Assembly: GCA_965209055.1 (NCBI GenBank)
Contig: OZ242374.1
Span: forward strand, 3,072,001-3,136,000
Direction: 5' to 3'
DNA: 64,000 nucleotides
Source: Acidobacteriota bacterium
GTDB lineage: Bacteria > Acidobacteriota > UBA6911 > RPQK01 > JAJDTT01
Part shown: positions 4,965 through 60,478 of the stretch, in pieces
Numbering within the stretch: position 1 is the stretch's first letter
Layout of the letters: every line of letters starts with the position of its first letter
Position numbers and translations under genes: made by a program
Notes under the pieces: model-generated
The model's database searches: none
What the model was told of the DNA's origin: nothing
What the model saw: the letters and a program-made list of their open reading frames with translations, nothing else

Positions 4965-6071
4965 GTGAAGAGTCCTTTGCGGATCCTCTATGTGGATACC
5001 GAGAGTTTCTGGCGGGGAGGCCAGGAGCAACTCTTCAGCCTGATGGTGGGAATCCGGAAACGGGGCCACGTTGTGGAGCTGGCGGCGCCGGCCGGGAGCC
5101 CGCTGGCGAACCGGGCCCGGGATGCGGGCATCCCCGCCCACAGCTTTACCCAGCGGAGTGAGCTGAGCCTTGCCGCGGCTTGGAAGCTGACACGGATCAT
5201 GGGATCCGGAACGGTGGACCTGCTCCACTACAATACGCCCCGTCCGGTGCTGGCCGGCAAACTGGCGGCTCTGATCTCCGGAGTCTCCGTTCTGGTCGCC
5301 TCCCGCCGGGTCAATTTTCCGTTGCGCTCCGGGTTCAGCCGCATCAAGTACAACCGGCTCCTCGACCGGGTGGTCACCGTCTCCGGGAGCATTCAGCGGA
5401 CGCTGGTTCAAAACGGCGTCCGGCCCGAGCGGGTCTCGGTAGTTTACGAGGGGGTGGACCTGCGGTCCGTGGACAGGCTCCCACACACGTCGGTGTTGCC
5501 GCCGCGATCAGGTCTCGTCGTCGGGGTCGTCGCCCACCTGAGCCCCGAGAAGGGGCACGTGACGGTGCTGAAGGCCGCGGCTCGGTTGCGGGAGAGGTTT
5601 CCCGGCGTCACGTATGTCTTTGTCGGCGGCGGGGAGCGCAGGCAGATGCTGGAGGAGCGGGCTCGCGCCCTGAACGTCGCGGACCGGGTCCTGTTCACCG
5701 GCTTTCGGAAAGACAGCGACGCGATGATGCGGGAATTCGACGTCTTCTGTCTGGCATCACTGTCCGAAGGGCTCAGCTCCGCCATTCTCGCCGCAATGGC
5801 CCGTCCGCTGCCCGTCGTGGCCACTCGCGTCGGCGGGATTCCGGAGCTGGTGGTGGATGGAAGCACGGGTCTGCTGGTCCCCCCGGGCCGGCCGGACAAG
5901 TTGGCCGAGGCGCTGGCCAAGGTGCTGTCGTCCGCCTCGTTGAGACGGCGAATGAGGGAAGCCGGCCGGAAGCGGGTGGCCGAGTATTTCACCCTGGAAC
6001 GGAAGCTGGATGAGACCGAGCGGCTCTATCTGGAACTGGCGAAGATGCGGCGGCCGAGTCGCTTGAGTTGA
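4965..6071 (+). CDS. Glycosyltransferase family 4 (GT-B)
   Basis: GGQEQ N-terminal motif, KGH, EGL...ILAAMA and VATRVGGIPE; GTG start 1 nt after the upstream stop. Confidence 0.9.
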   Translation: MKSPLRILYVDTESFWRGGQEQLFSLMVGIRKRGHVVELAAPAGSPLANRARDAGIPAHSFTQRSELSLAAAWKLTRIMGSGTVDLLHYNTPRPVLAGKLAALISGVSVLVASRRVNFPLRSGFSRIKYNRLLDRVVTVSGSIQRTLVQNGVRPERVSVVYEGVDLRSVDRLPHTSVLPPRSGLVVGVVAHLSPEKGHVTVLKAAARLRERFPGVTYVFVGGGERRQMLEERARALNVADRVLFTGFRKDSDAMMREFDVFCLASLSEGLSSAILAAMARPLPVVATRVGGIPELVVDGSTGLLVPPGRPDKLAEALAKVLSSASLRRRMREAGRKRVAEYFTLERKLDETERLYLELAKMRRPSRLS

Positions 6072-6185
6072 CAGGCTGCGGGAAAGTTCCCGCGCGGCAA
6101 GGCAGTCCGCCGAAGCGCGGATCCGGTCGAATGCCGTGACGGCATTTGCCGCCGGCTGGTAAGATGTGCCGGGATTTGGAAGGCC

Positions 6186-6944
6186 ATGAAGGGAGTCATT
6201 CTCGCAGGTGGACTCGGCACCAGATTGTGGCCCCTGACCAAGGTGACCAACAAGCACCTGTTGCCGGTCTACGACAAGCCCATGATCTACTACCCGCTGG
6301 AAATGCTGGTCGAAGCCGGCATCGACGAGATCATGCTGGTGACGGGGGGCAACAAAGCGGGTGACTTTCTCCGCCTGCTGGGCAGCGGCCAGGAGTTCGG
6401 TCTCAGACAGATCCACTTCGGTTACCAGGAGGGAGAAGGGGGGATCGCGGACGCGCTCTCTCTGGCCCGGCATTTCGCCGGGGACGACCTGATCTGCGTC
6501 GTGCTGGGCGACAACATTCTTGAAAAATCCATCGCGCCCTTCGTGCGTAGCTTCCTCCGGCAGGGCCGGGGCGCCAAGATCCTCTTGAAGAAAGTGCCCG
6601 ATCCCCAACGTTTCGGAGTGCCGGAGTTGAACGGCGACCGGGTCGTACGCATTACCGAGAAGCCGTCCAGACCCGCCTCTCCGTACGCGGTGACGGGAGT
6701 GTACATGTACGACAGCCGGGTCTTCGACATCATTGACACCCTCTCGCCTTCCGACCGGGGAGAGCTGGAGATTACGGACGTCAACAACCGGTACATCGAG
6801 TCGAACGAGTTGACGTACAATGTCATCGACGGCTGGTGGACGGACGCGGGAACCATCGAGTCCCTGATGCGCGCCGCGAACCTGGTGGCGGAGGATGCTG
6901 GAGCACCCGCGCGCCTTGAAGTCGAGATGCTCGCCAATCCTTGA
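6186..6944 (+). CDS. rmlA: Glucose-1-phosphate thymidylyltransferase-like sugar nucleotidyltransferase (short RmlA/SpsI type)
   Basis: GVILAGGLGTRLWPLT, KHLLPVYDKPMIYYP and RGELEITD. Confidence 0.88.
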   Translation: MKGVILAGGLGTRLWPLTKVTNKHLLPVYDKPMIYYPLEMLVEAGIDEIMLVTGGNKAGDFLRLLGSGQEFGLRQIHFGYQEGEGGIADALSLARHFAGDDLICVVLGDNILEKSIAPFVRSFLRQGRGAKILLKKVPDPQRFGVPELNGDRVVRITEKPSRPASPYAVTGVYMYDSRVFDIIDTLSPSDRGELEITDVNNRYIESNELTYNVIDGWWTDAGTIESLMRAANLVAEDAGAPARLEVEMLANP

Positions 6945-7044
6945 CATCCCGTGCGGCACTCCCGTATGAACCCCCGGGAAACGTGGGCCGGCACCGGGAC
7001 CGGAAACACGATCGGGATTCGGTTTTCTTGAGTGGTGGCTTCAG

Positions 7045-8070
7045 ATGAAATTGTTGGTCACCGGTGGAGCAGGCTTCATCGGCTCGAATTTCATCCGCCA
7101 CATTCTGAGCCGCCGCGGTTTTCAGGTCGTCAATTTCGATCTCCTCACCTATGCCGGGAACCTCCAGAACCTGGCCGGTCTGGGGGCCGGTGACGACTAC
7201 CGCTTCATCCGGGGCGACATTGCCTCCAGGCCGCAGGTCGCCGGGGCTCTGGATCCCGGAATCGACGCCATCGTCCACTTCGCCGCCGAGAGCCACGTGG
7301 ACCGGAGCATTCTGGATGCTTCCGCGTTTGTCCGCACCAACGTGCTGGGTACCCAGAACCTGTTGGAGGCGGCGCGCCGCAATGGGGTTTCCCGTTTCAT
7401 CCACGTGTCCACCGATGAGGTTTACGGTTCGCTGCCCGGCGTCGGAGAGTTCACCGAGGATTCTCCGCTGGCTCCCAACAGTCCCTATGCCGCCAGCAAA
7501 GCGGCCGCCGACCTGCTGGCCAGGGCCTACCACCGGACTTATGGCCTGGGCGTGGTTACGACCCGTTGCGGGAACAATTACGGTCCCTATCAATTTCCGG
7601 AGAAGCTGATTCCGCTGATGGTCTCCAACGCGCTGGACGATGAACCGCTCCCCTTGTACGGAGACGGTCTGTATACCCGGGACTGGATCCATGTCCTGGA
7701 CCATTGCCGCGCCCTGGAGTCGATACTGCTCGAGGGCCGGGAGGGGGCGGTCTACAACATCGGAGCCCACGGGGAACGGACCAACCTGGAAGTGGCGCGC
7801 CGAATCCTTGGTATCCTGGGAAAGCCTGAAGACCTGATCTCCTTCGTGGCCGACCGGCCGGCGCACGACCGGAGGTACGCCGTGGACAGCAGTCGTCTGC
7901 GGCTGGAGTTGGGATGGTCTCCCCGGATTTCCTTCGAGGAAGGGTTGGACGAGACGGTGCGGTGGTACCGCGATCATCCCCAATGGGTGGACGGGGTTCG
8001 AAGCGGCGATTACCGGCACTACTACCGCATGGTCTACGGGAACCGGGACCGGACCCTGTCCAGCCTATAG
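7045..8070 (+). CDS. rmlB: dTDP-glucose 4,6-dehydratase
   Basis: TGGAGFIG, AAESHVDRS, STDEVYG, YAASK and YGPYQFPEKLIP. Confidence 0.96.
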   Translation: MKLLVTGGAGFIGSNFIRHILSRRGFQVVNFDLLTYAGNLQNLAGLGAGDDYRFIRGDIASRPQVAGALDPGIDAIVHFAAESHVDRSILDASAFVRTNVLGTQNLLEAARRNGVSRFIHVSTDEVYGSLPGVGEFTEDSPLAPNSPYAASKAAADLLARAYHRTYGLGVVTTRCGNNYGPYQFPEKLIPLMVSNALDDEPLPLYGDGLYTRDWIHVLDHCRALESILLEGREGAVYNIGAHGERTNLEVARRILGILGKPEDLISFVADRPAHDRRYAVDSSRLRLELGWSPRISFEEGLDETVRWYRDHPQWVDGVRSGDYRHYYRMVYGNRDRTLSSL

Positions 8071-49146: not shown

Positions 49147-50484
49147 ATGTCGAATGCCCTGAGTCAGAGCGTCGAGCAGCTCAGCCGGGAAAAAGGCGTC
49201 GAATCCAAGGTCATTTACGAAGCCCTTGAGGACGCCATGGCCGCCGCCGCCAGGAAGCATTTCAGGACCGAGGAAGATCTGCAGGCGCGTTACGATCCGG
49301 TGACCGGCACCATCGAGGTGTTCGCCGTCAAGCGCATCGTTGAGGAAGTCGAAGAAGCAGAGACCGAGATGGCTCTGTCGGAGGCCTTGCAGTACGACGA
49401 GAGCTTCAAAGTGGGGGATTACCTGGAGATCCCCAAACCACCCTTGGAGCTGGGGCGAATCGCCGCCCAGACGGCCAAGCAGGTCATTTTCCAGAAAGTT
49501 CGGGAAGCGGAACGGGAGAACGTCTTCGAGGAGTATTCGGGCCAGATCGGACAGGTGGTCCACGGAATCGTGCGGCGCTACGAGGGGGGCAATATCGTGC
49601 TGGACATCGGCCGGACCGAGGCCGTGCTCCCGTACAACGAGCAGGCCCGCACCGAGGAGTATCGCCCGGGGGATCGGGTGCGAGCGGTCATCATCAAGGT
49701 TCACCGTCTCTCCAAGGGTCCCCAGATCGTCGTCTCCCGGGGCGATCCCAGCCTGTTGATCCGTTTGTTCGAGGCCGAGATTCCCGAAGTCTACGACCAC
49801 ACGGTCATCATCAAGAATGCGGTTCGGGAAGCGGGCGAACGCGCCAAGGTGGCGGTGTCGAGCCGGGACGACAACGTGGACCCGGTGGGAGCCTGCGTCG
49901 GCATGAGAGGCAGCCGGATCAACGCGGTGATCCGGGAGTTGCGGGGAGAGAAGATCGACATCATCCAATACTCGGACGACATCGTCGAGTACACCATCAA
50001 CGCCTTGAACCCCGCGCGAATCTCCAAGGTGCTGGTCCAGGACCCGCTGGACAAGGTTCTGGAAGTCATCGTCCCGGAGGATCAACTGTCTCTGGCCATC
50101 GGCAGAAAGGGACAGAATGTCCGCCTGGGTTCCAAGCTGCTGGGTTGGGAAATCAACATCAAGAGCGAGGAGGACAAGAAACGGGAGATCCTGGCTCAGA
50201 TGGAACAGCTGGCCGTACAGGCCGAACAGGCCGAACAGGCCGCGCGGGCGGGCCTGGAGGAGCTGGAGGGCCTGGGTGAAAAGACTCGGATTCGCCTCCA
50301 GGAAGCCGGTGTGCAAACCATTGAGGAACTTGCGAAGCGAACGGTCGAGGAATTGACGACCATTCCCATGATCGGCGAAAAGTCGGCCCTTAAGCTCCTT
50401 GCCCTGGCGGAGGCGTGGGTCCCCGACCAGGCGCAGGACGCGGTCGTGGAAACAGCCGGGGAAGTCGAGGCTGAGTTGGTCTGA
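49147..50484 (+). CDS. nusA: Transcription termination factor NusA
   Basis: GRIAAQTAKQVI, REAGERAKVAV, GACVGMRGSR and QLSLAIGRKGQNVRL. Confidence 0.97.
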   Translation: MSNALSQSVEQLSREKGVESKVIYEALEDAMAAAARKHFRTEEDLQARYDPVTGTIEVFAVKRIVEEVEEAETEMALSEALQYDESFKVGDYLEIPKPPLELGRIAAQTAKQVIFQKVREAERENVFEEYSGQIGQVVHGIVRRYEGGNIVLDIGRTEAVLPYNEQARTEEYRPGDRVRAVIIKVHRLSKGPQIVVSRGDPSLLIRLFEAEIPEVYDHTVIIKNAVREAGERAKVAVSSRDDNVDPVGACVGMRGSRINAVIRELRGEKIDIIQYSDDIVEYTINALNPARISKVLVQDPLDKVLEVIVPEDQLSLAIGRKGQNVRLGSKLLGWEINIKSEEDKKREILAQMEQLAVQAEQAEQAARAGLEELEGLGEKTRIRLQEAGVQTIEELAKRTVEELTTIPMIGEKSALKLLALAEAWVPDQAQDAVVETAGEVEAELV

Positions 50485-50572
50485 ACCATTGATATGATGG
50501 ACGTGCAAGCGGTTGTGGGCCGATGGAGTCCGCACCGGGGCATGTAAAGCGATAGGAAGCATCAAGACGGTT

Positions 50573-53065
50573 ATGGAACAGGTGAGAGTCAACGAACTGG
50601 CTTCCGAATTCGAGATGCGGAGTACGGCCGTCATCTCGGAGCTCAAGAAGATCGGGGTCTGGGTGCCTTCACCCGAAACTCCGGTGGACTTTGACATCGC
50701 CAATCGAATCCGCCGGCGCCTGCAGCTCGTCATCGACACGGCGCAGGAGGAGCAGGCCCGGTCCGTCAAGGCGAAGGTCAGGAAACGGCCGGCCGCCAAG
50801 CCTCGCAAGACCATCAAGCAGTTGGGACAGCCCAGGAAAGCCGCGTCGCCTGCGGCAGAGGCGATCGACAGCCCGTTCCTCATGGGATCGCTGAAGCCCA
50901 GAAAGGGGACAGGCAACTATCGGCGGGTCGTGACCGAGGCGCCGGAGGAGATCCTGGAGAAGACCGAGGTCACCATCGAAGACGAGCCCATCATCGAAAA
51001 GGTCGAGGCCCAGATTTCGGCGGAGCTTCTGGAACAGGCACAGCGAATGGTCCTTTCCACCCCGGCGCCGGTTACGTCCACCGGTCTTCCTCTGGTGCCG
51101 CCCGGTGGGGCCCCGCCAGTGGTTCCGCCACCGGTATCCGCGCCACCGCCGACGGAAGATGTGGTGGTGCCCACTCCTGAGGAAGCTCCCACTCCCGATC
51201 TGCCGGATGAGGCGGTCGAGGCCGCCACGGCTGCCGAAGCCGAGGCTCCCGCCGTCGAAGCCCCGGAGACGGAAGACCAGCCCGCCGAGATGGTGAAAGA
51301 GCCCGAGGGCCCCGCCGTGATCACGGTCAGCGATTCGGTGACCGTGAGGGAACTGAGCGAGAAGTTGGGGGTCAAGAGCAAGGTGCTCATCAAGGAGCTC
51401 TTCTCCCGGGGCGTGATGGCAACCATCAATCGGAGTCTGGACCGCGACACGATTCAGCAGTTGTGCGACATCTTCGAGATTCAGGTCGAGTTCGTCACCG
51501 AGCAGGAGGCCCTGGTCCAGGAGGAGCAAGTCGTCGAACGTCCGGAAGACGTTCGCGTGCGGGCCCCGGTCGTCACCGTCATGGGGCATGTCGACCACGG
51601 AAAGACGTCGCTCCTGGACGCCATTCGAGAATCCCGTGTGGCCGAATCCGAAGCCGGGGGCATCACGCAGCATATCGGCGCCTACCATGTCTCCGTCGAC
51701 GGCAGCAAGATCGTCTTTCTGGACACTCCGGGCCACGAAGCCTTCACCCTGATGCGGGCGCGCGGCGCCAAGGTGACCGACGTGGTGGTCCTGGTCGTCG
51801 CCGCGGACGATGGCGTCATGCCGCAGACTCTCGAGGCCATCGACCACGCCAAAGCCGCCGACGTTCCCATCGTGGTGGCCGTCAACAAGATGGACCGGCC
51901 CGACGCCAGGCCGGACCGGGTCAAGCAGCAGTTGGCGGACCGCGGACTCACTCCGGAGGACTGGGGCGGGGACACGGTCATGGTCGAGGTGTCCGCCTTG
52001 GTGCACACCAACCTGGACCTGTTGCTCGAGATGATCCTCCTGGTGGCGGATCTGACGGAGAGAACCGCCAATCCCCAGAAGCCGGCCGTGGCGGTGGTGC
52101 TGGAGGCTCAACTGGATCGGGGGCGAGGCCCGGTGGCGACGGCGCTGGTGCAGGACGGGACCCTCCGGGTGGGGGACTCCTTCGTGGTGGGCACGGCTTA
52201 CGGCAAGGTCCGCGCCATGTTCGACGACCGGGGACAGCCCGTCGTGGAGGCCGGACCCAGTTCTGCCGTCGAGGTCCTGGGACTGCAAGATCTTCCTCAG
52301 GCGGGAGACTCCTTCCAGGTTTTGGCAAGCGCCGCCAAAGCACGGGAAATCGCCCAGCAGAGGAGTCAGGAGCAGCGCCGGAAGGAACTGGCCAGATCGG
52401 GGCCTGTGGGTCTGGAACAGCTCTTCGCCCAAATGGGAAGCCAGGAAGTCAAGGAACTCGACTTGGTCATCAAGGCCGACGGGCGCGGATCGGTCGAGGT
52501 CCTGGAAGGATCGCTTCGAAAACTGAGCGGAGAGAAGGTCCGCATCAAGATCGTCCACAGCGGAGTCGGCGCCATTTCCGAGTCGGATGTCCTGCTGGCG
52601 GCCGCCTCCAATGCCCTGGTGGTGGGCTTCAACGTCCGTCCCGAACGCAACGCCCAGATGACCGCCGAGCGGGAGCAAGTCGAGCTTCGCATGTACACGG
52701 TCATCTACGAGCTGATCGAAGAAATTCAGCAGGCCATGCTCGGTCTTTTGGAACCCACCATTCGCGAGCGGTTGGTGGGCCGGGCGGAAGTGCGCGACAC
52801 TTTTCGCGTGGCCAAGTTCGGAACCATCGCCGGATGCTTCGTTCGGGACGGGTCGATTTCCCGCAACTCCCTGATTCGACTGGTTCGAGACGGCGCCGTC
52901 ATTCACGAAGGCCGGACCGCCTCGTTGCGGCGATTCAAGGAGGACGTCAACGAGGTCAGGAGCGGGTACGAGTGCGGCATCTCCATCGCCAACTACCAGG
53001 ACATCAAGGTCGGAGACGTGATCGAAGCCTTCGTGAAGGAAAAGGTCGCTCCCCAACTCGTTTAG
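50573..53065 (+). CDS. infB: Translation initiation factor IF-2
   Basis: [33 protein letters not shown] and SLRRFKEDV. Confidence 0.98.
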
Positions 53066-53099
53066 TCCGGTTTCTCCATAAACGCCCGCCTGTTCGCCG

Positions 53100-53390
53100 A
53101 TGCCCATCGTTTTCTGTTCCCTTGAAATCTACCTCCCCTACAGCCGGTCTCTGAAGGAGAAGCGCAACGTGGTCCGCAAGACCGCGGACCGCCTGCGTTC
53201 CCGGCTCAACTTCTCCGTGGCCGAGATCGATTACCAGAATCTGCACCGGAGGGCCCGGCTCGGAGCGGTCTCGGTGGGACCCGACCGGGTGACTCTGGAA
53301 CGCGTTTCCAATCGGCTCATCCGGGAGAGCGAGAAGATTCTGGGAGGGGATCTGGTGGACTACCACGTCGAAATCTTCGATCATGACTGA
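53100..53390 (+). CDS. DUF503 (YlxP-like) protein
   Basis: SLKEKRNVV and NFSVAEID.Q..H; canonical position after infB. Confidence 0.9.
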   Translation: MPIVFCSLEIYLPYSRSLKEKRNVVRKTADRLRSRLNFSVAEIDYQNLHRRARLGAVSVGPDRVTLERVSNRLIRESEKILGGDLVDYHVEIFDHD

Positions 53391-53470
53391 CGGCTCCTGG
53401 CCCGCGTTTCCACGAGATTCTCTCGCTCCCGCCCTTTTGGCCCCAGGGCCGTCTGTGCTAGATTTGGACG

Positions 53471-53779
53471 ATGATGCCTCGTAGAGCATCCGTGCACGCC
53501 GGACCCGCACGACGTGGCTCCGTCCGGCGCGCCTGGGTCGTCATCCTGACATTGGCAGTCACCGGTGCCGCAATCGCCGCGGCCATCTGCCACGAGGAGC
53601 ACGCATCCGGACACGACTGCACGGCCTGCCAGTTCCGGCATCAGCCCGCCGCCGAACTCTCCGGATCCTTGCAGATCGGTTTCTCGAACGTTTCGGCGCC
53701 GCTGAAGCACGCTGGCGACGGCGGATGGATCTCATCCGGTCATTCCCGCAGCCTCTCCGCCCGCGCACCCCCCGCCTAG
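53471..53779 (+). CDS. DUF2946-like (CruR/CutF-type) metal-binding leader protein with RAPP C-terminus
   Basis: Hydrophobic segment, then CHEEH..GHDCTAC, then C-terminal ARAPPA*. Confidence 0.75.
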   Translation: MMPRRASVHAGPARRGSVRRAWVVILTLAVTGAAIAAAICHEEHASGHDCTACQFRHQPAAELSGSLQIGFSNVSAPLKHAGDGGWISSGHSRSLSARAPPA

Positions 53780-54032
53780 TTCCCGTTACATGTTTAGTTC
53801 GCCTTTAGTACCGCCATCGCCGGCGATACCGCCCGATTCGGTGGTGCAGGCAAATGCGCCCCGTGCGACCGATGTGTTGCCCGGCGCCGCGCGGGCCCGC
53901 GACTTCCGGTACCGCCCAGGGGAACTCTTCCCCAGGTCCGGCGTCGGCGCACGTTCCATGAGGTTTCCATTCCCGGCGGCGGATCAGTGAACCGTTGGGA
54001 CTCAGGAAGGGGAATCCAAGAAGGAGAATCTG

Positions 54033-54233
54033 ATGAACCGATTGACAGCAACTGGCATTACAGAGACAGGGGACTGGCGAGCGCTCAACGACCGCCTCGT
54101 CGCCGCGCTCAAACCGTTCGCACCGCCGCTGGCTATCTCGTTCCACGGCGCCGGCGAGACGCTCGAGGCGACGGTCGGGCTCAACCGCGCGATGGCGCCC
54201 TGCGCCTCGGCGGACGCGAAACGGTTTGGATGA
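54033..54233 (+). pseudogene. Internally deleted DUF169-like gene
   Basis: Strong RBS AAGGAG; N-terminus DWRALNDRLVAALKPFAPPLAISF and C-terminus ADAKRF resemble the two ends of DUF169 proteins, but the ORF is only 66 aa. Confidence 0.45.
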
Positions 54234-54237
54234 GCCG

Positions 54238-55365
54238 ATGGCGAAAAAAGTCCGGTCATTCGACATTGTCATCGTTGGCGCCGGGGCCGCCGGTCTCGGT
54301 CTTGGTGTGACGTTACGCGACCTCGGAATCGAGAACTTTGTGATTCTCGACCGCTCCGCCATCGGCGCCTCATTCCTGCGTTGGCCCCGGCAAACGCGCT
54401 TCATCACGCCGTCGTTCAACAGCAACCAGTTCGGCAGCCTGGACCTGAATGCCATCTGTCTGTACACCTCGCCGGCTTACTCGGTTGGCGTCGAGCACCC
54501 CACGGGGGAGGAGTACGCCAGCTATCTGCGAGGGGTTGCGAGGCATTTTAACTTGCCCGTGGAGACCGGGATCGACGTTCGCTCGGTCGCGAGGAGACCT
54601 CGATCCAACGGGTTTTGGGTGAAGACGAGTCGCGGCGACGCCCGCGCGCGGTTCGTGGTCTGGGCGGGCGGCGAAATGCAGTACCCGCGGACCCATTGCT
54701 TCCACGGCTCCGAGCTTTGCCTGCATTACTCCAATGTGACCTCATTTGACGATCTCAAAGGCGCCGAGAGATGCATCATCGGCGGTTCCGAGAGCGGCAT
54801 CGACGCCGCCGTCGCGCTCGCCGCCGCCGGTCGACGAGCCGTCGTCTTCGACCGCGAAGAGCCGTGGAAGCGAACAGGGCCGGACCCCAGCGAACTCTTG
54901 TCGCCCTTTACGAAGACGCGTCTGAATTCGGTAATTGACTCGGGTCGGGTGACGTTGCGCGGAGGCTGTCCGGTCATCGGCGTCAGCCGCAAGGACAATG
55001 GCTATCGGTTGGCGCTCAAGGACGGCGACGTCGTCCACTGCGCCGAGAAGCCGATTCTGGCCTCCGGATTCGCCGGTTCGGCAAGCCTCGTTCGCTCGTT
55101 GTTCGATTGGCGGGATGATGGTTTCCCGTTGCTGACGGAAAACGATGAGTCCACCGTGGCGAAAGGGCTATTCCTGGTGGGGCCGCAGGTGCGCCAGGAC
55201 GATATCATCTTTTGTTTCATCTACAAGTTCCGCCAGCGCTTCGCCGTGGTGGCCAACCAGATCGCCCAACGCCTGCGGATCAGCGTGGAGCCGCTCGAGG
55301 AGTACCGCCAGCACGGAATGTACCTCGACGATCTATCGTGCTGCAGTGATGATTGCGCTTGTTGA
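54238..55365 (+). CDS. NAD(P)/FAD-dependent oxidoreductase (CzcO/YpdA-like) with Cys-rich tail
   Basis: VGAGAAG, FITPSF, IIGGSESG, FCFIYKFRQRF and C-terminal DDLSCCSDDCAC*. Confidence 0.88.
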   Translation: MAKKVRSFDIVIVGAGAAGLGLGVTLRDLGIENFVILDRSAIGASFLRWPRQTRFITPSFNSNQFGSLDLNAICLYTSPAYSVGVEHPTGEEYASYLRGVARHFNLPVETGIDVRSVARRPRSNGFWVKTSRGDARARFVVWAGGEMQYPRTHCFHGSELCLHYSNVTSFDDLKGAERCIIGGSESGIDAAVALAAAGRRAVVFDREEPWKRTGPDPSELLSPFTKTRLNSVIDSGRVTLRGGCPVIGVSRKDNGYRLALKDGDVVHCAEKPILASGFAGSASLVRSLFDWRDDGFPLLTENDESTVAKGLFLVGPQVRQDDIIFCFIYKFRQRFAVVANQIAQRLRISVEPLEEYRQHGMYLDDLSCCSDDCAC

Positions 55366-55377
55366 AGGAGCCGTGAA

Positions 55378-57006
55378 ATGCTCCGGACGTCACTTCGAAC
55401 TGTCGTTCTGTTGGGTAAAGAGAACGTCGGCAAGACGCAACTGGCCGCATCGCTGACGGGTGCGTCCAGCGCTGCCTCGAACTTCCGAGGCGCCAACGTC
55501 GGCTGCGACTCCTACCGAGTGGACGACTGGGAACTGATCGACACGCCCGGGCTGCTACGAAGCTCCGATGTTGAGACCACCCGGCTAGCCCTGGAGCGCC
55601 TGCGTGGCGATGATACCGTCCTACTGGTCGCCCAGGGAACCGAACTGGACGCAGACCTGGCCGACCTGATGCCGCTGGTAGCGGGTCGACTGGGCGCACT
55701 GGTCGTGACCCATCGGGACCGACTCGCCCGGCTGGAAGTGGAGGCGCGGCTGGGAGAGCTGGCGCGCCGGACGGGTTTGCCGGTGGTCTTCGTAGACGCT
55801 CGACGACTGGACCCCAACGACCGTCAAGGGCTGATGCAGGCGCTGGAAGCGCCCGGCACGATCCCCGCCGAAGCTGGTTTGAGCTTCCGCGATCTGATCG
55901 TCCGTCCGCGCCCTCTTTTCCTGGATCGCTCCGCCCTCGGGCCATTCTGGGCGCTGCTGCTGTTGTTGACTCCCGCCTGGGTCGCGGTGGATGCCGCTAG
56001 TCGTCTCGCGGACCGAATCGACCCCTGGGTTCGCGTCCCGACTGAACTGCTGGCCGGGTTGTTGGCGAGCTGGCCGCAGCCGCTTGCGGAGATCCTGGCC
56101 GGCGACTACGGCTTTGTCACGATGGGGCCGCTGCTGTTGGTGTGGGCGACTCCGCTGGTCGTGCTCCATGCGCTGCTGATGGGTGCGTACAAGGCGAGCG
56201 GCTTGCTTGATCGCCTGACAACCGCCATGAATCCGTGGCTGCGGCCGTTCGGCATGACGGGCCGGGAGTTGGCGCGCGTCGTGATGGGTTTCGGCTGCAA
56301 CGTGCCCGCCGTCATCAGCGCGCGCTCGTCGTCGGCTTGCTCGCGCGGCGTATGCGTCTCGGCCATCGCTTTCGGTTCGGCCTGTTCGTATCAGTTGGGA
56401 GCCACGCTGGCGGTCTTCGCCGCGGCGGGACGACCCGGGTTGATCGTATTCTACCTGCTCTATCTCGGCGTTACGACTCTCGCCTACTCCCGCCTCAGCG
56501 CACCTCCGGCGGCTCGTTCTCCCTTCAATGTGCTGTTGACGGAGGGCCGGGTATTCTTGACCTGGCCGCGCCCGCGCGCCGTCTGGCTTGAGGCGCAGGG
56601 CGTTGTTGGGGAGTTCTTTCGCAGGGCCTTGCCGATCTTCTTTCTGATCACAGCCGCAGCTTCTCTGTTGCATTGGCTGGGCGCGCTGCAAGCTGCGTCG
56701 GCCGTCGTCGAGCCGGCGATGGCCGCCTTTCGATTGCCCTCGGAGGCGGCCCTGGCGGTGGTTTTGGCGAGCGTGCGCAAGGACGGCATCCTGCTGCTGG
56801 CGGAGCCGGGCGTCGCCGCAAGCCTCAGCGCCGTCCAACTGTTGACGGCCGTCTACCTGGCCGGCGTGCTACTGCCTTGTCTGGTCACCTGTTTGACGAT
56901 TGCGCGCGAGCAGGGTCGCGGATTCGCGCTGCGGTTGGTGGGTCGGCAGGCTGTGGCAGCCACCGGGTTCAGCGCTTTGCTGGCGTGGGGCGGCGCATGG
57001 CTGTGA
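55378..57006 (+). CDS. FeoB-like GTPase plus Gate-domain membrane transporter (short subfamily)
   Basis: GKENVGKT, DTPG, MGFGCNVPA, GSACS, LLPCLVT..TI.RE and multiple TMs. Confidence 0.88.
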   Translation: MLRTSLRTVVLLGKENVGKTQLAASLTGASSAASNFRGANVGCDSYRVDDWELIDTPGLLRSSDVETTRLALERLRGDDTVLLVAQGTELDADLADLMPLVAGRLGALVVTHRDRLARLEVEARLGELARRTGLPVVFVDARRLDPNDRQGLMQALEAPGTIPAEAGLSFRDLIVRPRPLFLDRSALGPFWALLLLLTPAWVAVDAASRLADRIDPWVRVPTELLAGLLASWPQPLAEILAGDYGFVTMGPLLLVWATPLVVLHALLMGAYKASGLLDRLTTAMNPWLRPFGMTGRELARVVMGFGCNVPAVISARSSSACSRGVCVSAIAFGSACSYQLGATLAVFAAAGRPGLIVFYLLYLGVTTLAYSRLSAPPAARSPFNVLLTEGRVFLTWPRPRAVWLEAQGVVGEFFRRALPIFFLITAAASLLHWLGALQAASAVVEPAMAAFRLPSEAALAVVLASVRKDGILLLAEPGVAASLSAVQLLTAVYLAGVLLPCLVTCLTIAREQGRGFALRLVGRQAVAATGFSALLAWGGAWL

Positions 57007-57617
57007 GCCCGATCATCGGCGCCCACCGGCGCAAGGGGCAAAAACTGCTGCACCGGCAGTGCTGGAACTGGGGCCGGGACATCGAGCGTCCGGAAGGCAA
57101 CCTCCTGCTCGAAGCGGGCTTCCTCAAGAGACGGCCGCCCGAAGGAGCAGTAGGATCGAGCTGCTATACGCTCACGCTGTCCGACGGCGACATCCTCATG
57201 GTGTGGGGTTTCGGCCTCCTGTACGGAACGCTGCACAAGGGCGGCGTCTTCCTCAACCGCTACGAGTTTCACCCCCTATGGCTGCCGTTGGAGATGGTCC
57301 GGGAGCCCATTTGGAGGCCCGACATGATCCCGGCTGCACAGACGCCTCCGTCGCCCCGCGTACCGGTTGACTTGACCGTCGCCGCCATTCGGCGCATCGC
57401 GGACTATGAGGAGTGGGCGCTCGCGCGCTGCGGTCTGGAGTATCGTCGCGCCATTCTGCGCCAATGGAAACGGCCTTCCGAGCGACTGCCGCCGCAGACC
57501 GTTCCTCAGGCTTGGCGCTCGCTCGCCGATGCAATCGACGGCCAACCGCACCTGCATCCCCCGCGCCGACCTGTCCCAGCGGCAGACGGGCCGTCTTTCG
57601 GCGAGGTTCGGGACTAG
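57003..57617 (+). CDS. Hypothetical protein translationally coupled to the FeoB-like gene
   Basis: GTGA overlap with the upstream stop; Trp-rich QCWNWGRDI...GNLL..GF and VWGFG. Confidence 0.75.
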   Translation: MSPIIGAHRRKGQKLLHRQCWNWGRDIERPEGNLLLEAGFLKRRPPEGAVGSSCYTLTLSDGDILMVWGFGLLYGTLHKGGVFLNRYEFHPLWLPLEMVREPIWRPDMIPAAQTPPSPRVPVDLTVAAIRRIADYEEWALARCGLEYRRAILRQWKRPSERLPPQTVPQAWRSLADAIDGQPHLHPPRRPVPAADGPSFGEVRD

Positions 57618-57780
57618 GAGCCTGTCCGAGAACTCGGCGTTGACCGATCCGGCGTCGTTCGCAGCCTTCGCCTGCCAAGAGCTGGGCCTGTTTTGCCAAG
57701 GGCTGGTATGCTCTCCCCGCACTCCTGGTGCGGCGCACCGAACTCACGGATTCGGTGTGTCGCGACGCAGGCACGGCGCC

Positions 57781-58755
57781 ATGCTCGAGGAAATCGTCCG
57801 CTTCACCCGGGATCACCATCGCTTCGCCGTCACTTCTCACGCTCGCCCCGACGGGGATTCCATCGGGTCGGAGCTGGGATTGGGACTGGCCCTGGAAGCT
57901 CTTGGAAAGACGGTCACCATCGTCAACGCCGATCGCGTGCCGCGGGTCTACCGCTGGCTCCCAGGCGCCGAACGAATTCGGACCGTCGACCGGTTGGAAG
58001 GGAATTGGGACGCCGTCTACGTCCTGGAGTGCAACGACCTGAACCGCCCCGGGGTCCGGAACCTGGATCGCTATCCGGTGGTCAACATCGATCACCATGC
58101 CCGCACCGAACCGTTCGGGACCTTCAACTGGGTGGACTCGGGAGCCGCGGCCGTCGCCGAAATGGTGTACCGGCTCCTGTTGGAACTGGAGGTGGCCGTC
58201 ACGCCCGAAATCGCCACCAATCTCTATGTGGCGATTCTGACCGACACCGGCTCGTTTCGGTTTTCCAGCACTCACGCCGGGACCTTCCACACGGCTGCCC
58301 GCCTGACCGAAGCGGGGGCGGACCCGGGCTGGATCGCCCAGCAGGTCTACATGAACCAGCCGCGATCCCGGGTGGGTCTGCTGGTCAAGGTCCTGGACAC
58401 TTTGGAGATCCATCCCTCCGGGAGGATCGCGTCGATCTACCTGTCGCAATCCATGTTGGCCGAAGCCGGAGCCACCGAAGAGGACGCTGAGGGTCTCGTG
58501 AACTATGCCCTGGGTCTGGAGGGCATCCGGATGGCGGCCTTGGTCCGCCAGGGCAGGGACGGTCAGGTTCGGGTCAGCCTGCGTTCCAAGGGAGACTACG
58601 ACGTAGGGTTCGTGGCGTCCCGATTGGGTGGTGGAGGGCACCGAAATGCGGCCGGCCTGAGAATGGAGGGAGACACGGCCCATGTGGCCGCGGAAGTCCT
58701 GGGCCGCCTGGAGCAGCTCTTGGATCCGGTTGACCAGGGGTCCCCGGCATCTTGA
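57781..58755 (+). CDS. nrnA: DHH/DHHA1 nanoRNase / pAp phosphatase
   Basis: H.RPDGDS.GS, IDHH, TDTG.F, SLRS and GGGGH.NAAG. Confidence 0.93.
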   Translation: MLEEIVRFTRDHHRFAVTSHARPDGDSIGSELGLGLALEALGKTVTIVNADRVPRVYRWLPGAERIRTVDRLEGNWDAVYVLECNDLNRPGVRNLDRYPVVNIDHHARTEPFGTFNWVDSGAAAVAEMVYRLLLELEVAVTPEIATNLYVAILTDTGSFRFSSTHAGTFHTAARLTEAGADPGWIAQQVYMNQPRSRVGLLVKVLDTLEIHPSGRIASIYLSQSMLAEAGATEEDAEGLVNYALGLEGIRMAALVRQGRDGQVRVSLRSKGDYDVGFVASRLGGGGHRNAAGLRMEGDTAHVAAEVLGRLEQLLDPVDQGSPAS

Positions 58756-59690
58756 GCAGACGGCGAACCCGGCGGCGCAGGGCCGCAAGCAATGCCGCCG
58801 GCCGCTTTCGAAGCGGCTCGCGCGGTCCCGCTCCGGACGGTGTCCTGGTCATCGACAAGCCGGAGGGCCCCACCTCCCATGACGTCGTGGAATCGGCGCG
58901 GCGCTCGCTCGGGACCCGCGCGGGGCACACCGGCACCCTGGATCCCCTGGCGACCGGGGTCCTTCCCCTGGTCCTGGGAAAGGCGACTCGGCTGAGCCGT
59001 TTCTACCAGAACCAGGACAAGGAGTACCTGGCCGGAATCGGTCTGGGGAGAGCGACCGAAACCTATGACCGGGAGGGAGCGGTGGTCCGGGAAGGTCCGG
59101 TTCCCGACCTCTCGACCCGGGAGGTTCGGGAGTTGTTGGATCGATTCGTGGGCGAAATCCCCCAGCGTCCGCCGCTCTACTCGGCCGTTCGGGTCGGGGG
59201 CCGCCGGCTCTACGAATTGGCCCGGCGCAAGCAGCAGGGAGAGCCTCCCCTCCGCCAAGTCAGGATTCATGGAATCGAGTTGTTGGAACGGGGCAGGGAG
59301 GAGTGGACGCTCCAGGTTCACTGTTCCGCCGGAACCTACATCCGATCCCTGGCTCACGACCTGGGCGAAGTGATCGGCTGCGGGGCTTTTCTGGAGAGTC
59401 TGAGACGGATTCGCTCCGGTTCCTTCGACCTGTCCCGGGCGGTATCGCCCGAACGGATGGGGGAGGAATGGGAGCGCGCCCATTTCCCCCTGGAGGCGCT
59501 GCTTCCGGAGCTTCCCCAGGTCGAGTTGGAGGATCCCGAAGCGAAGCGGGTCCGTCACGGGGGACAGGTCGTTGTCGATCCGCCTCTCCCCGGCGGCTGG
59601 TGCCGGATCTTGCACGGGGGCCGCCTGGTGGCCCTCGGAGAAACGGACGCCGCGACGATTCAACCTTCAATCGTCCTGGACCCGCTGTAG
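58752..59690 (+). CDS. truB: tRNA pseudouridine(55) synthase
   Basis: DKPEGPTSHDVV, GHTGTLDPLATGVL and CSAGTYIRSL. Confidence 0.97.
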   Translation: MSRRRTRRRRAASNAAGRFRSGSRGPAPDGVLVIDKPEGPTSHDVVESARRSLGTRAGHTGTLDPLATGVLPLVLGKATRLSRFYQNQDKEYLAGIGLGRATETYDREGAVVREGPVPDLSTREVRELLDRFVGEIPQRPPLYSAVRVGGRRLYELARRKQQGEPPLRQVRIHGIELLERGREEWTLQVHCSAGTYIRSLAHDLGEVIGCGAFLESLRRIRSGSFDLSRAVSPERMGEEWERAHFPLEALLPELPQVELEDPEAKRVRHGGQVVVDPPLPGGWCRILHGGRLVALGETDAATIQPSIVLDPL

Positions 59691-59704
59691 GGAAATCGAG
59701 AGGG

Positions 59705-60478
59705 ATGCCGGTGAAAGGGACCTTTCCGGAATTGGCGCCGCTGGTGGAAAGGCTGCGCGGGCGGCCGCGCTTCCTGGTCTTCACGGGAGCGGGCATCTCC
59801 ACGGGATCCGGGATCCCCGACTTCCGGGGACCCCAGGGCGTCTGGAAGAAATGGACGCCGGTTTACTACCAGGAGTTCCTGAATTCCCGTGAGGCGCGGA
59901 TCCGGCACTGGCAGTACAAGCTGGAGGGCTGGGAGGGGTTCCGGGACGCCATGCCCAACGCGGCCCATCGTGCGTTGTCGCGCCTGGACCGGCAGGGGCG
60001 TCTCGATGCCGTGGTCACACAGAACATCGACGGCCTTCACCAGTTGGCCGGACATCCCCCGGGAAGAGTCATCGAGTTGCACGGAACCAATCGGATGGTG
60101 GAGTGCACCGGCTGCGGCCTCCGGCAAGACCCGGACCCCGTCTATTCGGAGTTCGCCCGAACCGGCGATCCACCCCGCTGTTCCTGCGGCGGTTACCTGA
60201 AGCCGGCGACCGTCTCCTTCGGCCAGGCCATGCCCCGGGACAAATTGGCGTCGGCTTTTGAGGCGGCCGCCCGGGCCCAGGTGGTCTGCTCCATCGGATC
60301 CACGCTGGAAGTGGAACCGGCGGCCTCGGTGCCCCGGGCGGCCCGGCAGGGAGGCGCCTTCTACGCCATCATCAATCGAGGCGAAACCGCGCACGATCAC
60401 ATCGCCGATCTGAAGGTCGAAGCGGACGTCAACCGGATCCTGCCGGCGCTGGCCGAGCGGCTGGCGCGCCTCTCTTGA
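59705..60478 (+). CDS. cobB: NAD-dependent protein deacylase (sirtuin)
   Basis: TGAGIST.SGIPDFRG, TQNIDGLH, ELHG and Zn-binding Cys. Confidence 0.92.
   Translation: MPVKGTFPELAPLVERLRGRPRFLVFTGAGISTGSGIPDFRGPQGVWKKWTPVYYQEFLNSREARIRHWQYKLEGWEGFRDAMPNAAHRALSRLDRQGRLDAVVTQNIDGLHQLAGHPPGRVIELHGTNRMVECTGCGLRQDPDPVYSEFARTGDPPRCSCGGYLKPATVSFGQAMPRDKLASAFEAAARAQVVCSIGSTLEVEPAASVPRAARQGGAFYAIINRGETAHDHIADLKVEADVNRILPALAERLARLS

Follow-up and report, generated by a model that had tools for sequence, protein, structure and literature searches.

Whether a short reading frame at the head of a gene cluster acts as a metal-sensing leader that arrests its own ribosome, and which genes and which metal it would then serve, is the question raised by a locus in an acidobacterial genome. 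The locus lies in a stretch of 64,000 nucleotides, the window (assembly GCA_965209055.1, contig OZ242374.1, positions 3,072,001 to 3,136,000, forward strand), and window coordinates are used below unless a genome is named. A co-oriented block is found there, made up of a 102-aa leader open reading frame (ORF), a flavoprotein gene, a gene for a FeoB-like protein and a third gene of no known family. The source genome is designated G000 and its congeners G001 to G008; the block and the conserved sequence ahead of it form a unit of 4.2 kb (approximately 53401-57624).

The original prediction for this block was that a leader of the type represented by CruR and CutF gates a reductase and a metal importer. 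All of the features it listed are present and correctly described, including the flavoprotein end CCSDDCAC, the FeoB-like gene 12 nt further on and the GTGA overlap with the unknown gene. The flavoprotein gene does follow the leader, but the two are not directly adjacent, as a 253-nt spacer and a 66-aa ORF, neither of them mentioned, intervene. The reading favoured here, by analogy with characterised leaders and at slightly less than even probability, is that an arrest-type metal leader gates a metal-uptake cassette. Its parts differ in strength and are considered in turn.

Leader architecture and relationship to CruR and CutF

The predicted leader peptide has an Arg-rich N-terminus, a hydrophobic stretch at residues ~22-40, the segments H41-E-E-H44 and H48-D-C50-T-A-C53, and a C-terminal R98-A-P-P-A102 followed by TAG. 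Judged by eye, six Arg in residues 4-20 and the hydrophobic residues 22-40 make up an N-in membrane anchor, which is kept in the family. A single-sequence search retrieved 93 homologues of 75-111 residues that are 47-94% identical, none with a Pfam label, and a profile search with the leader family gave 377 matches in which the same motifs are kept. Because both sets preserve the motifs, the ORF is more than a chance reading frame. The CxxC is present in all 93 homologues and in 9 of 9 copies in the genus, and is preceded by HxxH in 86 of the 93. R(A/G)PP is located exactly 44 residues past the second Cys in 92 of 93 homologues (RAPP in 59, RGPP in 32 and RVAP in 1), with a single residue between the motif and the stop in 87 of those 92. 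The conservation of RAPP anticipated in the original prediction is thus borne out at a fixed spacing.

Within the order, the leader family was detected in 7 of 76 genomes, namely the five that carry the unit and two from another family. The leaders of the latter two end in RSPP, again with a spacing of 44, and each precedes a TonB receptor. Four further leaders in the genus are also not associated with the cassette, and all six non-cassette leaders precede a TonB receptor.

CruR (Bp2923 of Bordetella pertussis), a DUF2946 protein that heads bfrG, is likewise an exported small protein that has a CxxC followed at a fixed distance by RAPP at the C-terminus, 45 residues in CruR and 44 in the acidobacterial leader. 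In the available part of the CruR report (PMC9426467), the CxxC is described as a copper-binding motif that matters for function, altering the spacing of 45 impairs regulation, and CruR comes first in gene order, a long spacer (162 nt, compared with 253 nt here) separating it from a TonB receptor gene. Among 24 proteins that pass the Pfam threshold for DUF2946, the distance from CxxC to the motif is 43-46 residues (45 in 13, 46 in 3, 43 in 3 and 44 in 1), and variant motifs are found in four of the 24. CruR differs from the leader in sharing no significant sequence similarity with it and in carrying three residues after RAPP rather than one, while HxxH is an extra feature here. The CruR receptor is of the copper type whereas that associated with the leader family is ZnuD-like (see below), and the leader here also heads genes for cytoplasmic and inner-membrane proteins. 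The synteny section of the CruR report, in the portion available, names Proteobacteria, a few Planctomycetes, Firmicutes and Deinococcus, whereas the leader described here is acidobacterial.

CutF of Rhodobacter capsulatus, which heads cutO, is a metal sensor that acts as a nascent, exported chain and has a Cys motif and a Pro-rich end for stalling; the leader resembles it in these respects. According to the accessible text (10.1101/2025.02.05.636593), in which RAPP-type arrest peptides are cited, the Cys motif of CutF matters, and CutF has CxxxC, metal-induced stalling and a stem-loop that masks the next start; none of these was seen here.

Sequence comparison with DUF2946 counts against the proposed relationship. 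The window copy of the leader has no match to PF11162, and a six-frame scan of the genome for this family gave nothing at either leader locus. Of 41 leader relatives, 21 match PF11162, all below threshold (best E 0.0053), and alignment of the leader family with DUF2946 by hhalign gave a probability of 11% over 16 columns around the CxxC. No bridge to DUF2946 was found by profile search, none of the 120 matches listed of the 377 having a Pfam label. The part of the original prediction that concerns architecture (membrane anchor, CxxC, terminal RAPP and fixed spacing) therefore stands, while the expected match to the DUF2946 hidden Markov model does not. From its sequence, the leader is of the CruR/CutF type in architecture, with membership in DUF2946 failing, and by analogy it is quite probably an arrest-type metal sensor.

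If the leader works as CruR does, it would be inserted co-translationally in the membrane, so that, by the time the ribosome came to RAPP 44 residues further on, the HEEH...CxxC segment would already have left the cytoplasm. With no metal present, the ribosome would be arrested one codon before the stop, the spacer would be protected and the downstream genes would be expressed. Metal bound to the nascent chain would release the arrest, and the untranslated spacer would then permit premature (Rho-type) termination, switching the uptake genes off. Following CruR logic, the uptake genes would be on only when metal is scarce.

The opposite logic, in which metal induces stalling and switches the genes on and the cassette is a detoxification or efflux device, is very unlikely. 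CutF works in this way in the text available (10.1101/2025.02.05.636593), and DUF2946 genes head czc-type efflux operons (PMC4176598; PMC9973294), among them a zinc-efflux operon in Caulobacter (PMC4176598), although the usual downstream gene in the family studied here is an uptake receptor. Moreover, the long spacer matches CruR and not CutF, no stem-loop masking the ribosome-binding site (RBS) was seen, and the neighbours of the flavoprotein and FeoB-like genes in other lineages are starvation genes.

A receptor operon as the source of the leader and spacer

A paralogue of the leader with 83% protein identity is located at 727543-727848 in G000, and 53453-54011 of the window, which takes in the leader and almost all of the spacer, has 88% DNA identity to this second locus. 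The paralogous leader is followed by a spacer of ~250 nt and a gene for a TonB receptor of 837 aa that carries a CarboxypepD_reg domain at its N-terminus. In the PDB, this receptor is matched best by the zinc-piracy receptor ZnuD (4RDR, E 3e-33, the runner-up reaching 9e-13), which is also its best NCBIfam match (E 1.2e-56, compared with 2.5e-11 for TonB-copper). It differs from ZnuD in its N-terminal domain and in lying far under the cut-off of the ZnuD model NF038289, with 192.7 bits where 950 are needed. Two inserts rich in His, Asp and Glu, of ~30 and ~55 residues (HDDEHGEEHDDEHGDEHH...), are a further likeness to ZnuD and are unusually extreme even among ZnuD-like receptors; the receptor gene is at G000:C1:724781-727290 (5282-7795 of locus L020, minus strand).

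Nine leader loci from five congeneric genomes were aligned. The homology takes in 70 nt ahead of the leader, the leader itself and the spacer, and ends just past the third codon of the receptor. The 66-aa ORF of the window begins with ATG AAC CGA, the codons that open the TonB receptor ORF in two congeners, and its stop is 4 nt before the ATG of the flavoprotein gene. In G001, a 200-nt deletion has removed this ORF and the flavoprotein (MKKKARSFD...) starts at exactly the receptor-type ATG, 7 nt after AAGGAG. At the other end of the unit, a relic corresponds to residues 538-595 of the paralogous receptor, with 55% identity and gaps. The shared start codons, the start used in G001 and the relic together indicate that the receptor ORF was exchanged for a foreign cassette, whereas the leader and spacer in front of it stayed as they were. 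On this sequence evidence, the leader, its upstream 70 nt and the spacer were duplicated from a ZnuD-like receptor operon before a foreign three-gene cassette took the place of the receptor ORF. The 66-aa ORF has no Pfam match even at E 10 and no tblastn match in other loci; a tentative identification as a DUF169 fragment gained no support from either search.

A DNA search over the nine genomes of the genus (G000 to G008) located the unit at three chromosomal sites in five of them, one shared by G000 and G001, one by G002 and G003, and another in G004. The infB loci of G002, G003 and G004 are uninterrupted. In the window, the left border of the island is at 53401 and the unit is inserted between the DUF503 gene and nrnA, replacing ~60 nt of spacer that is seen in G005. 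The empty form of the site was found in G005, G006 and G007, where these genes are ~45-65 nt apart with no unit between them; only the nrnA side was matched in G008. There are no mobility genes inside the unit and no target-site duplication was seen when filled and empty sites were compared. The only mobility gene found nearby is an integrase of the phage type, ~4 kb from the unit in G002, and is absent from the same site in G003. The 38-nt element at the right edge recurs with 97% identity at G000:C1:1809889-1809926, and with 87-91% identity in at least five places in G005 and at a single place in G007. Possibly it is a small dispersed repeat, resembling a repetitive extragenic palindrome or a miniature inverted-repeat transposable element, with a part in movement of the unit.

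The conserved 70 nt ahead of the leader include a 12-bp palindrome, GGCCCC(A/G)GGGCC (GGCCCCGGGGCC; GGCCCCAGGGCC in the window), and a -10-like TGCTAGATT. Both are conserved upstream of 8 of the 9 leader copies and have been lost from the copy at the receptor locus of G000, making this stretch a candidate operator or promoter. A scan for sigma-70 consensus promoters found none, and terminator-like sites numbered four, compared with a shuffled expectation of 3.9.

That the leader controls the cassette is somewhat probable by analogy. In the alternative case, the leader copy in the unit is an inert by-product of the rearrangement and the cassette is expressed by read-through from infB or from its own signals, which is considered improbable. 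The leader ORF is intact in all five units, with CxxC, RAPP and the spacing retained in 5 of 5, and the leader, the upstream 70 nt and the spacer have been kept in five units at three sites. In addition, the first cassette ORF uses the start of the receptor itself, and in G001 the flavoprotein does so.

Several observations nevertheless speak against leader control. In G000 and G001 the unit is directly behind nusA-infB-DUF503, so that read-through transcription could feed it. Some island copies have lost a single His residue (HEEQ in G001, GYDC in G003), and the ratio of nonsynonymous to synonymous substitution rates (dN/dS) of the leader is 0.3-1.0, whether the copy is in an island or at a receptor locus. 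As dS is only 0.03-0.26, an intact leader ORF in five related units could persist without selection. From the sequences compared, this range of dN/dS fits a peptide in which only the motifs matter, and is no proof of continued use of the island copy. The spacer has no significant predicted structure (z 0.10), covariation in 2 of 83 pairs, and base counts of C 81 and G 80. Without structure, with little covariation and with C not above G, it bears no sequence mark of a Rho site or a masked RBS; it also showed no terminator and no Rfam match at E <= 1. The linkage of leader and cassette is a single evolutionary event. Synteny of the two, proposed as a check in the original prediction, is found in all five cassette genomes, though this amounts to one genus and one rearrangement, and no leader was found in 36 + 26 loci of other lineages, where the flavoprotein and FeoB-like pair works without one.

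In favour of the overall reading, contigs from two metatranscriptome libraries (X1 and X2; sponge and coral metagenome), compared with 53300-57800 of the window, cover the three cassette genes with 88-99% likeness, and one of them joins 54036 to 54242, which is the junction between spacer and flavoprotein of the G001 type. These contigs come from relatives, may contain DNA and give no proof of a single transcript; cover over the leader in run X2 is low or absent and not interpretable. The library labels suggest that the lineage lives with marine invertebrates.

The flavoprotein and FeoB-like pair and its genomic context

The flavoprotein matches Pfam Pyr_redox_3 with E 6e-92 over 305 of 305 profile positions, and PDB 3D1C, filed as a 'flavin-containing putative monooxygenase', with E 8.5e-76 (residues 9-375 against 6-369, the tail being aligned). 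Its listed start is TTG 54226; ATG 54238 fits the homologues better. Matches in NCBIfam to the bacillithiol-disulfide reductase YpdA and to ArsO are weak. Residues C326, C373 and C375 are invariant in a 19-row alignment.

The FeoB-like gene is preceded by GAAGGAG and predicts a protein with matches to FeoB_N (E 6e-10, 39.2 bits, cut-off 27) and Gate (E 1.8e-15, 57.7 bits, cut-off 29.6); of the domains named for checking in the original prediction, FeoB_N, Gate and Pyr_redox_3 were recovered by profile search. The score against TIGR00437 is 93.1 bits, below the cut-off of 315.65. As in canonical FeoB, an N-terminal G domain is fused to a Gate-domain permease with a GFGCNVP-type motif. However, the protein is only 542 aa long, shares 22-30% identity with canonical FeoB in the scanned loci and has extra conserved Cys motifs, and the unit contains no FeoA and has the flavoprotein as partner instead. 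At G4, the five subfamily rows compared all have TxxD, and six canonical FeoB rows have NMxD; T111 and D114 are invariant in a 14-row subfamily alignment. Invariant motifs of the permease are GFGCNVPAV, the Cys in CS.CSR, AFGxACSYQ and LPCL. The protein belongs to a distinct and widespread subfamily of ~545 residues with 1235 matches at E <= 1e-10.

A scan of one genome per species gave 80 loci, 36 of this subfamily (36-58% identity) and 44 of canonical FeoB (22-32%). The subfamily loci are from cyanobacteria, Chloroflexi, Acidimicrobiia, Planctomycetes, Verrucomicrobia, a spirochaete, a deltaproteobacterium, Pseudoalteromonas, Erwinia, Paenibacillus and Cohnella, and, among archaea, from Nitrosopumilus and haloarchaea. 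A flavoprotein gene is beside the FeoB-like gene in 28 of the 36 subfamily loci and in 0 of the 44 canonical loci. Six of the eight subfamily loci that lack it have <1 kb of upstream sequence; the other two, L044 and L053, lack it despite >4 kb of sequence on either side. At least 25 of the 28 paired flavoproteins show the tail CC...CxC, with only CxC in L041, none in L050 and a sequence that starts inside the motif in L064. In a sample of 401 Bacilli genomes, 25 carry the subfamily and the flavoprotein adjoins it in 25 of 26 loci. Prediction of a complex between the two proteins gave 0.02 and 0.22 (alignments A7 and A3; mark 0.32), which is evidence in neither direction.

In loci L138-L145, from Bacilli genomes of 2.3-2.8 Mb, the FeoB-like ORFs are ~450 aa and only the permease part (query ~96-236 onward) was matched, hence the G domain may have been replaced or be highly diverged. 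Acidobacteria-like metagenome proteins of ~370 aa with the Gate domain alone also exist.

The third gene starts at GTG 57003 (the GTGA overlap) or ATG 56997 and ends at 57617. Its product has no Pfam or NCBIfam match, although 803 representative clusters were retrieved at E <= 1e-3, and it is encoded near the pair in 5 of the 36 subfamily loci. The family core does not extend to the last ~25 residues, whose coding DNA runs into the receptor relic from 57544 on. The model is confident, with a predicted local distance difference test score (pLDDT) of 92.5, and no convincing counterpart was found among solved structures; structure searches returned a best Foldseek E of 0.22, a best Z of 6.9 to generic helical folds in a wide VIA search, and unnamed ESM Atlas clusters at 0.83.

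Genes for zinc limitation recur beside the pair. Among 82 ORFs from 15 subfamily loci compared with Pfam, CobW/COG0523 was found in 8 loci (twice in one), Fur-family genes in 3, paralogues of cysteinyl-tRNA synthetase (CysRS) in 2, and ZIP with ABC-3 and an ABC ATPase, a DksA paralogue, PTPS (QueD-type), PRA-CH (HisI-type), staphylopine dehydrogenase, NikR and MerC in a single locus each. When all loci were searched by tblastn, genes of the CobW type were present in 13 of the 36 subfamily loci compared with 0 of the 44 canonical FeoB loci of similar length, and Fur-type genes in 4 compared with 0; CobW-type genes are also found in 12 of the 26 Bacilli loci. In one Bacilli genome (2.8 Mb), a protein scoring 456 bits to 3D1C is followed directly by FeoB-like and CobW-like genes. 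The 3D1C protein itself is presumably from Staphylococcus aureus.

The Zur regulon set of Haas et al. includes COG0523, znuABC, zur and paralogues of HisI, CysRS, QueD and DksA, and the neighbours of the pair are this gene set as given in the available part of that paper (PMC2770081). [quoted passage not shown] This operon is described in the same terms as the pair plus COG0523, gene identity with the pair being inferred from that description, and unlike the unit it is under transcriptional (Zur) control and not that of a leader. In Corynebacterium glutamicum, the strongly Zur-regulated 'oxidoreductase' Cg0795 is next to COG0523 (PMC2823685) and is a possible further member of the flavoprotein family. 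Neither an oxidoreductase nor flavin is mentioned in the paper on ZigA of S. aureus. Supplementary tables aside, nothing on the pair was found in the literature beyond the S. aureus mention, and no paper giving its function; nor was an acidobacterial leader clade, a ZnuD-type cargo or a flavoprotein/FeoB-like cargo found described. The original prediction that the four-gene combination is uncharacterised holds to the extent that no matching paper was found, with the qualification that a similarly described S. aureus operon is Zur-regulated. Its list of candidate metals (Zn, Cu, Co and Fe) can be narrowed towards zinc, given the ZnuD-like receptor and the zinc-limitation genes beside the pair.

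For the metal sensed by the leader, zinc has about an even chance, and import of zinc by the pair is proposed tentatively. The pair would serve in zinc starvation to import Zn2+ or some other thiophilic divalent cation, and would be composed of a Cys-lined GTPase-permease and a flavoprotein that either maintains the thiol ligands in reduced form or accepts the metal; an accessory role is supposed for the third protein. Precedents are provided by CzcO, a flavoprotein of the same superfamily that aids the divalent-cation transporter CzcD in Bacillus subtilis, and by mercuric reductase, where a C-terminal pair of vicinal Cys in a flavoprotein tail handles a metal ion. The domain name CzcO (COG2072) is in print (PMC7570161).

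The case for zinc is weakened by a number of points. COG0523 proteins also serve cobalt and iron enzymes, and CxxC is the classic copper motif. As zinc does not have to be reduced, the presence of a flavoprotein partner has no obvious explanation. The unit holds no zinc-regulon genes (flanks beyond the infB operon were not scanned), and the zinc link of the pair comes from association in other lineages and from the S. aureus data. We know of no Zur motif for this acidobacterial lineage. Both characterised relatives, CruR and CutF, sense copper in the text available, with nickel or cobalt suggested for some His-only clusters, and the word "zinc" is absent from the main text of PMC9973294.

The same arrest mechanism with copper as the sensed metal, the receptor and cassette serving copper or another thiophilic metal, has a low probability. 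The CxxC is important in CruR (PMC9426467, available part) and CutF (10.1101/2025.02.05.636593, available part), a Cys-rich tail and Cys-lined permease suit Cu(I), a reductase gains a role that it lacks with zinc, and MerC and a P-type ATPase are near the pair in two loci. Set against copper are a paralogous receptor far more like ZnuD than like copper receptors, the zinc-limitation genes next to the pair, the His ligands added in the leader (HxxH in 86 of 93) and, in the accessible text, Zur control of the S. aureus operon of matching description (PMC13586535).

It is also rather unlikely that the pair is something other than a zinc importer, with the flavoprotein acting in a zinc-sparing or thiol/metallophore pathway as a monooxygenase or disulfide reductase and the FeoB-like protein moving Fe2+ or an organic ligand, or exporting. 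The nearest structure is filed as a putative flavin monooxygenase, the weak YpdA and ArsO matches point the same way, the permease is related to FeoB, staphylopine dehydrogenase is a neighbour in one locus and zinc is redox-inert. However, the flavoprotein is tightly paired with the permease across phyla and its Cys tail is invariant, the Cys motifs of the permease are unlike those of canonical FeoB and G4 is changed, and no biosynthetic genes recur with the pair.

Features of the locus are listed in Table 1. In the window, the gene order is nusA (49147-50484), infB (50513-53065), DUF503 (53100-53390), the block, an NrnA-like DHH gene and truB. Within this cluster (49147-59690), rbfA was not seen between infB and truB. 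An ORF resembling Sir2-type deacetylases is located at 59303-60478, 3' of truB, with the motifs GAGISTGSGIPDFRG and paired CxxC in a translation judged by eye.

Table 1. Features of the unit and its edges, with window coordinates.
Feature	Position	Strand	Basis
Candidate promoter/operator stretch, 70 nt, conserved, inside the mobile unit	53401..53470	+	Common to 8/9 leader loci of the genus
Leader ORF, 102 aa, CruR-like candidate arrest peptide	53471..53779	+	Homologue searches; sub-threshold DUF2946
Untranslated spacer, 253 nt, ending in RBS AAGGAG	53780..54032	+	88% DNA identity to G000 727866-727305; 9-copy alignment
Chimeric 66-aa ORF behind strong AAGGAG site	54033..54233	+	ORF list, 9-copy alignment
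NAD(P)H/FAD flavoprotein, Pyr_redox_3, conserved C-terminal tail LDDLSCCxxxCxC	54238..55365	+	Pfam, PDB 3D1C
Short FeoB-type protein, 542 aa, G domain and Gate-domain permease	55378..57006	+	Pfam, NCBIfam, alignments
Conserved protein of unknown family, core ~180 aa	57003..57617	+	Alignment, model
Relic of replaced TonB receptor	57544..57690	+	tblastn E 1.8e-9; blastn 70%
Repeated element, 38 nt, right edge of unit	57614..57651	+	DNA search

Significance of the leader and the pair

It is conceivable, if doubtful, that the acidobacterial clade represents the first zinc-sensing nascent-chain arrest leaders, with an extracytoplasmic Cys2His2-type site linked to RAPP at a fixed 44 residues, and that the pair is an unrecognised zinc importer of the zinc-starvation response in many bacterial and archaeal phyla. 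Arrest leaders for extracellular metal have, in the literature available, been characterised for copper and in Proteobacteria, and a zinc-type clade elsewhere would, if true, widen both their chemistry and their range. Because the cargo has been exchanged naturally while the leader and spacer stayed the same, the locus offers a ready test of whether such leaders are portable as control modules. Conservation of the pair spans haloarchaea, Nitrosopumilus, cyanobacteria and Bacilli, and the structure of one member has been solved; should the pair prove to import zinc, it would be a new class of transporter in zinc homeostasis, including in organisms studied for nutritional immunity.

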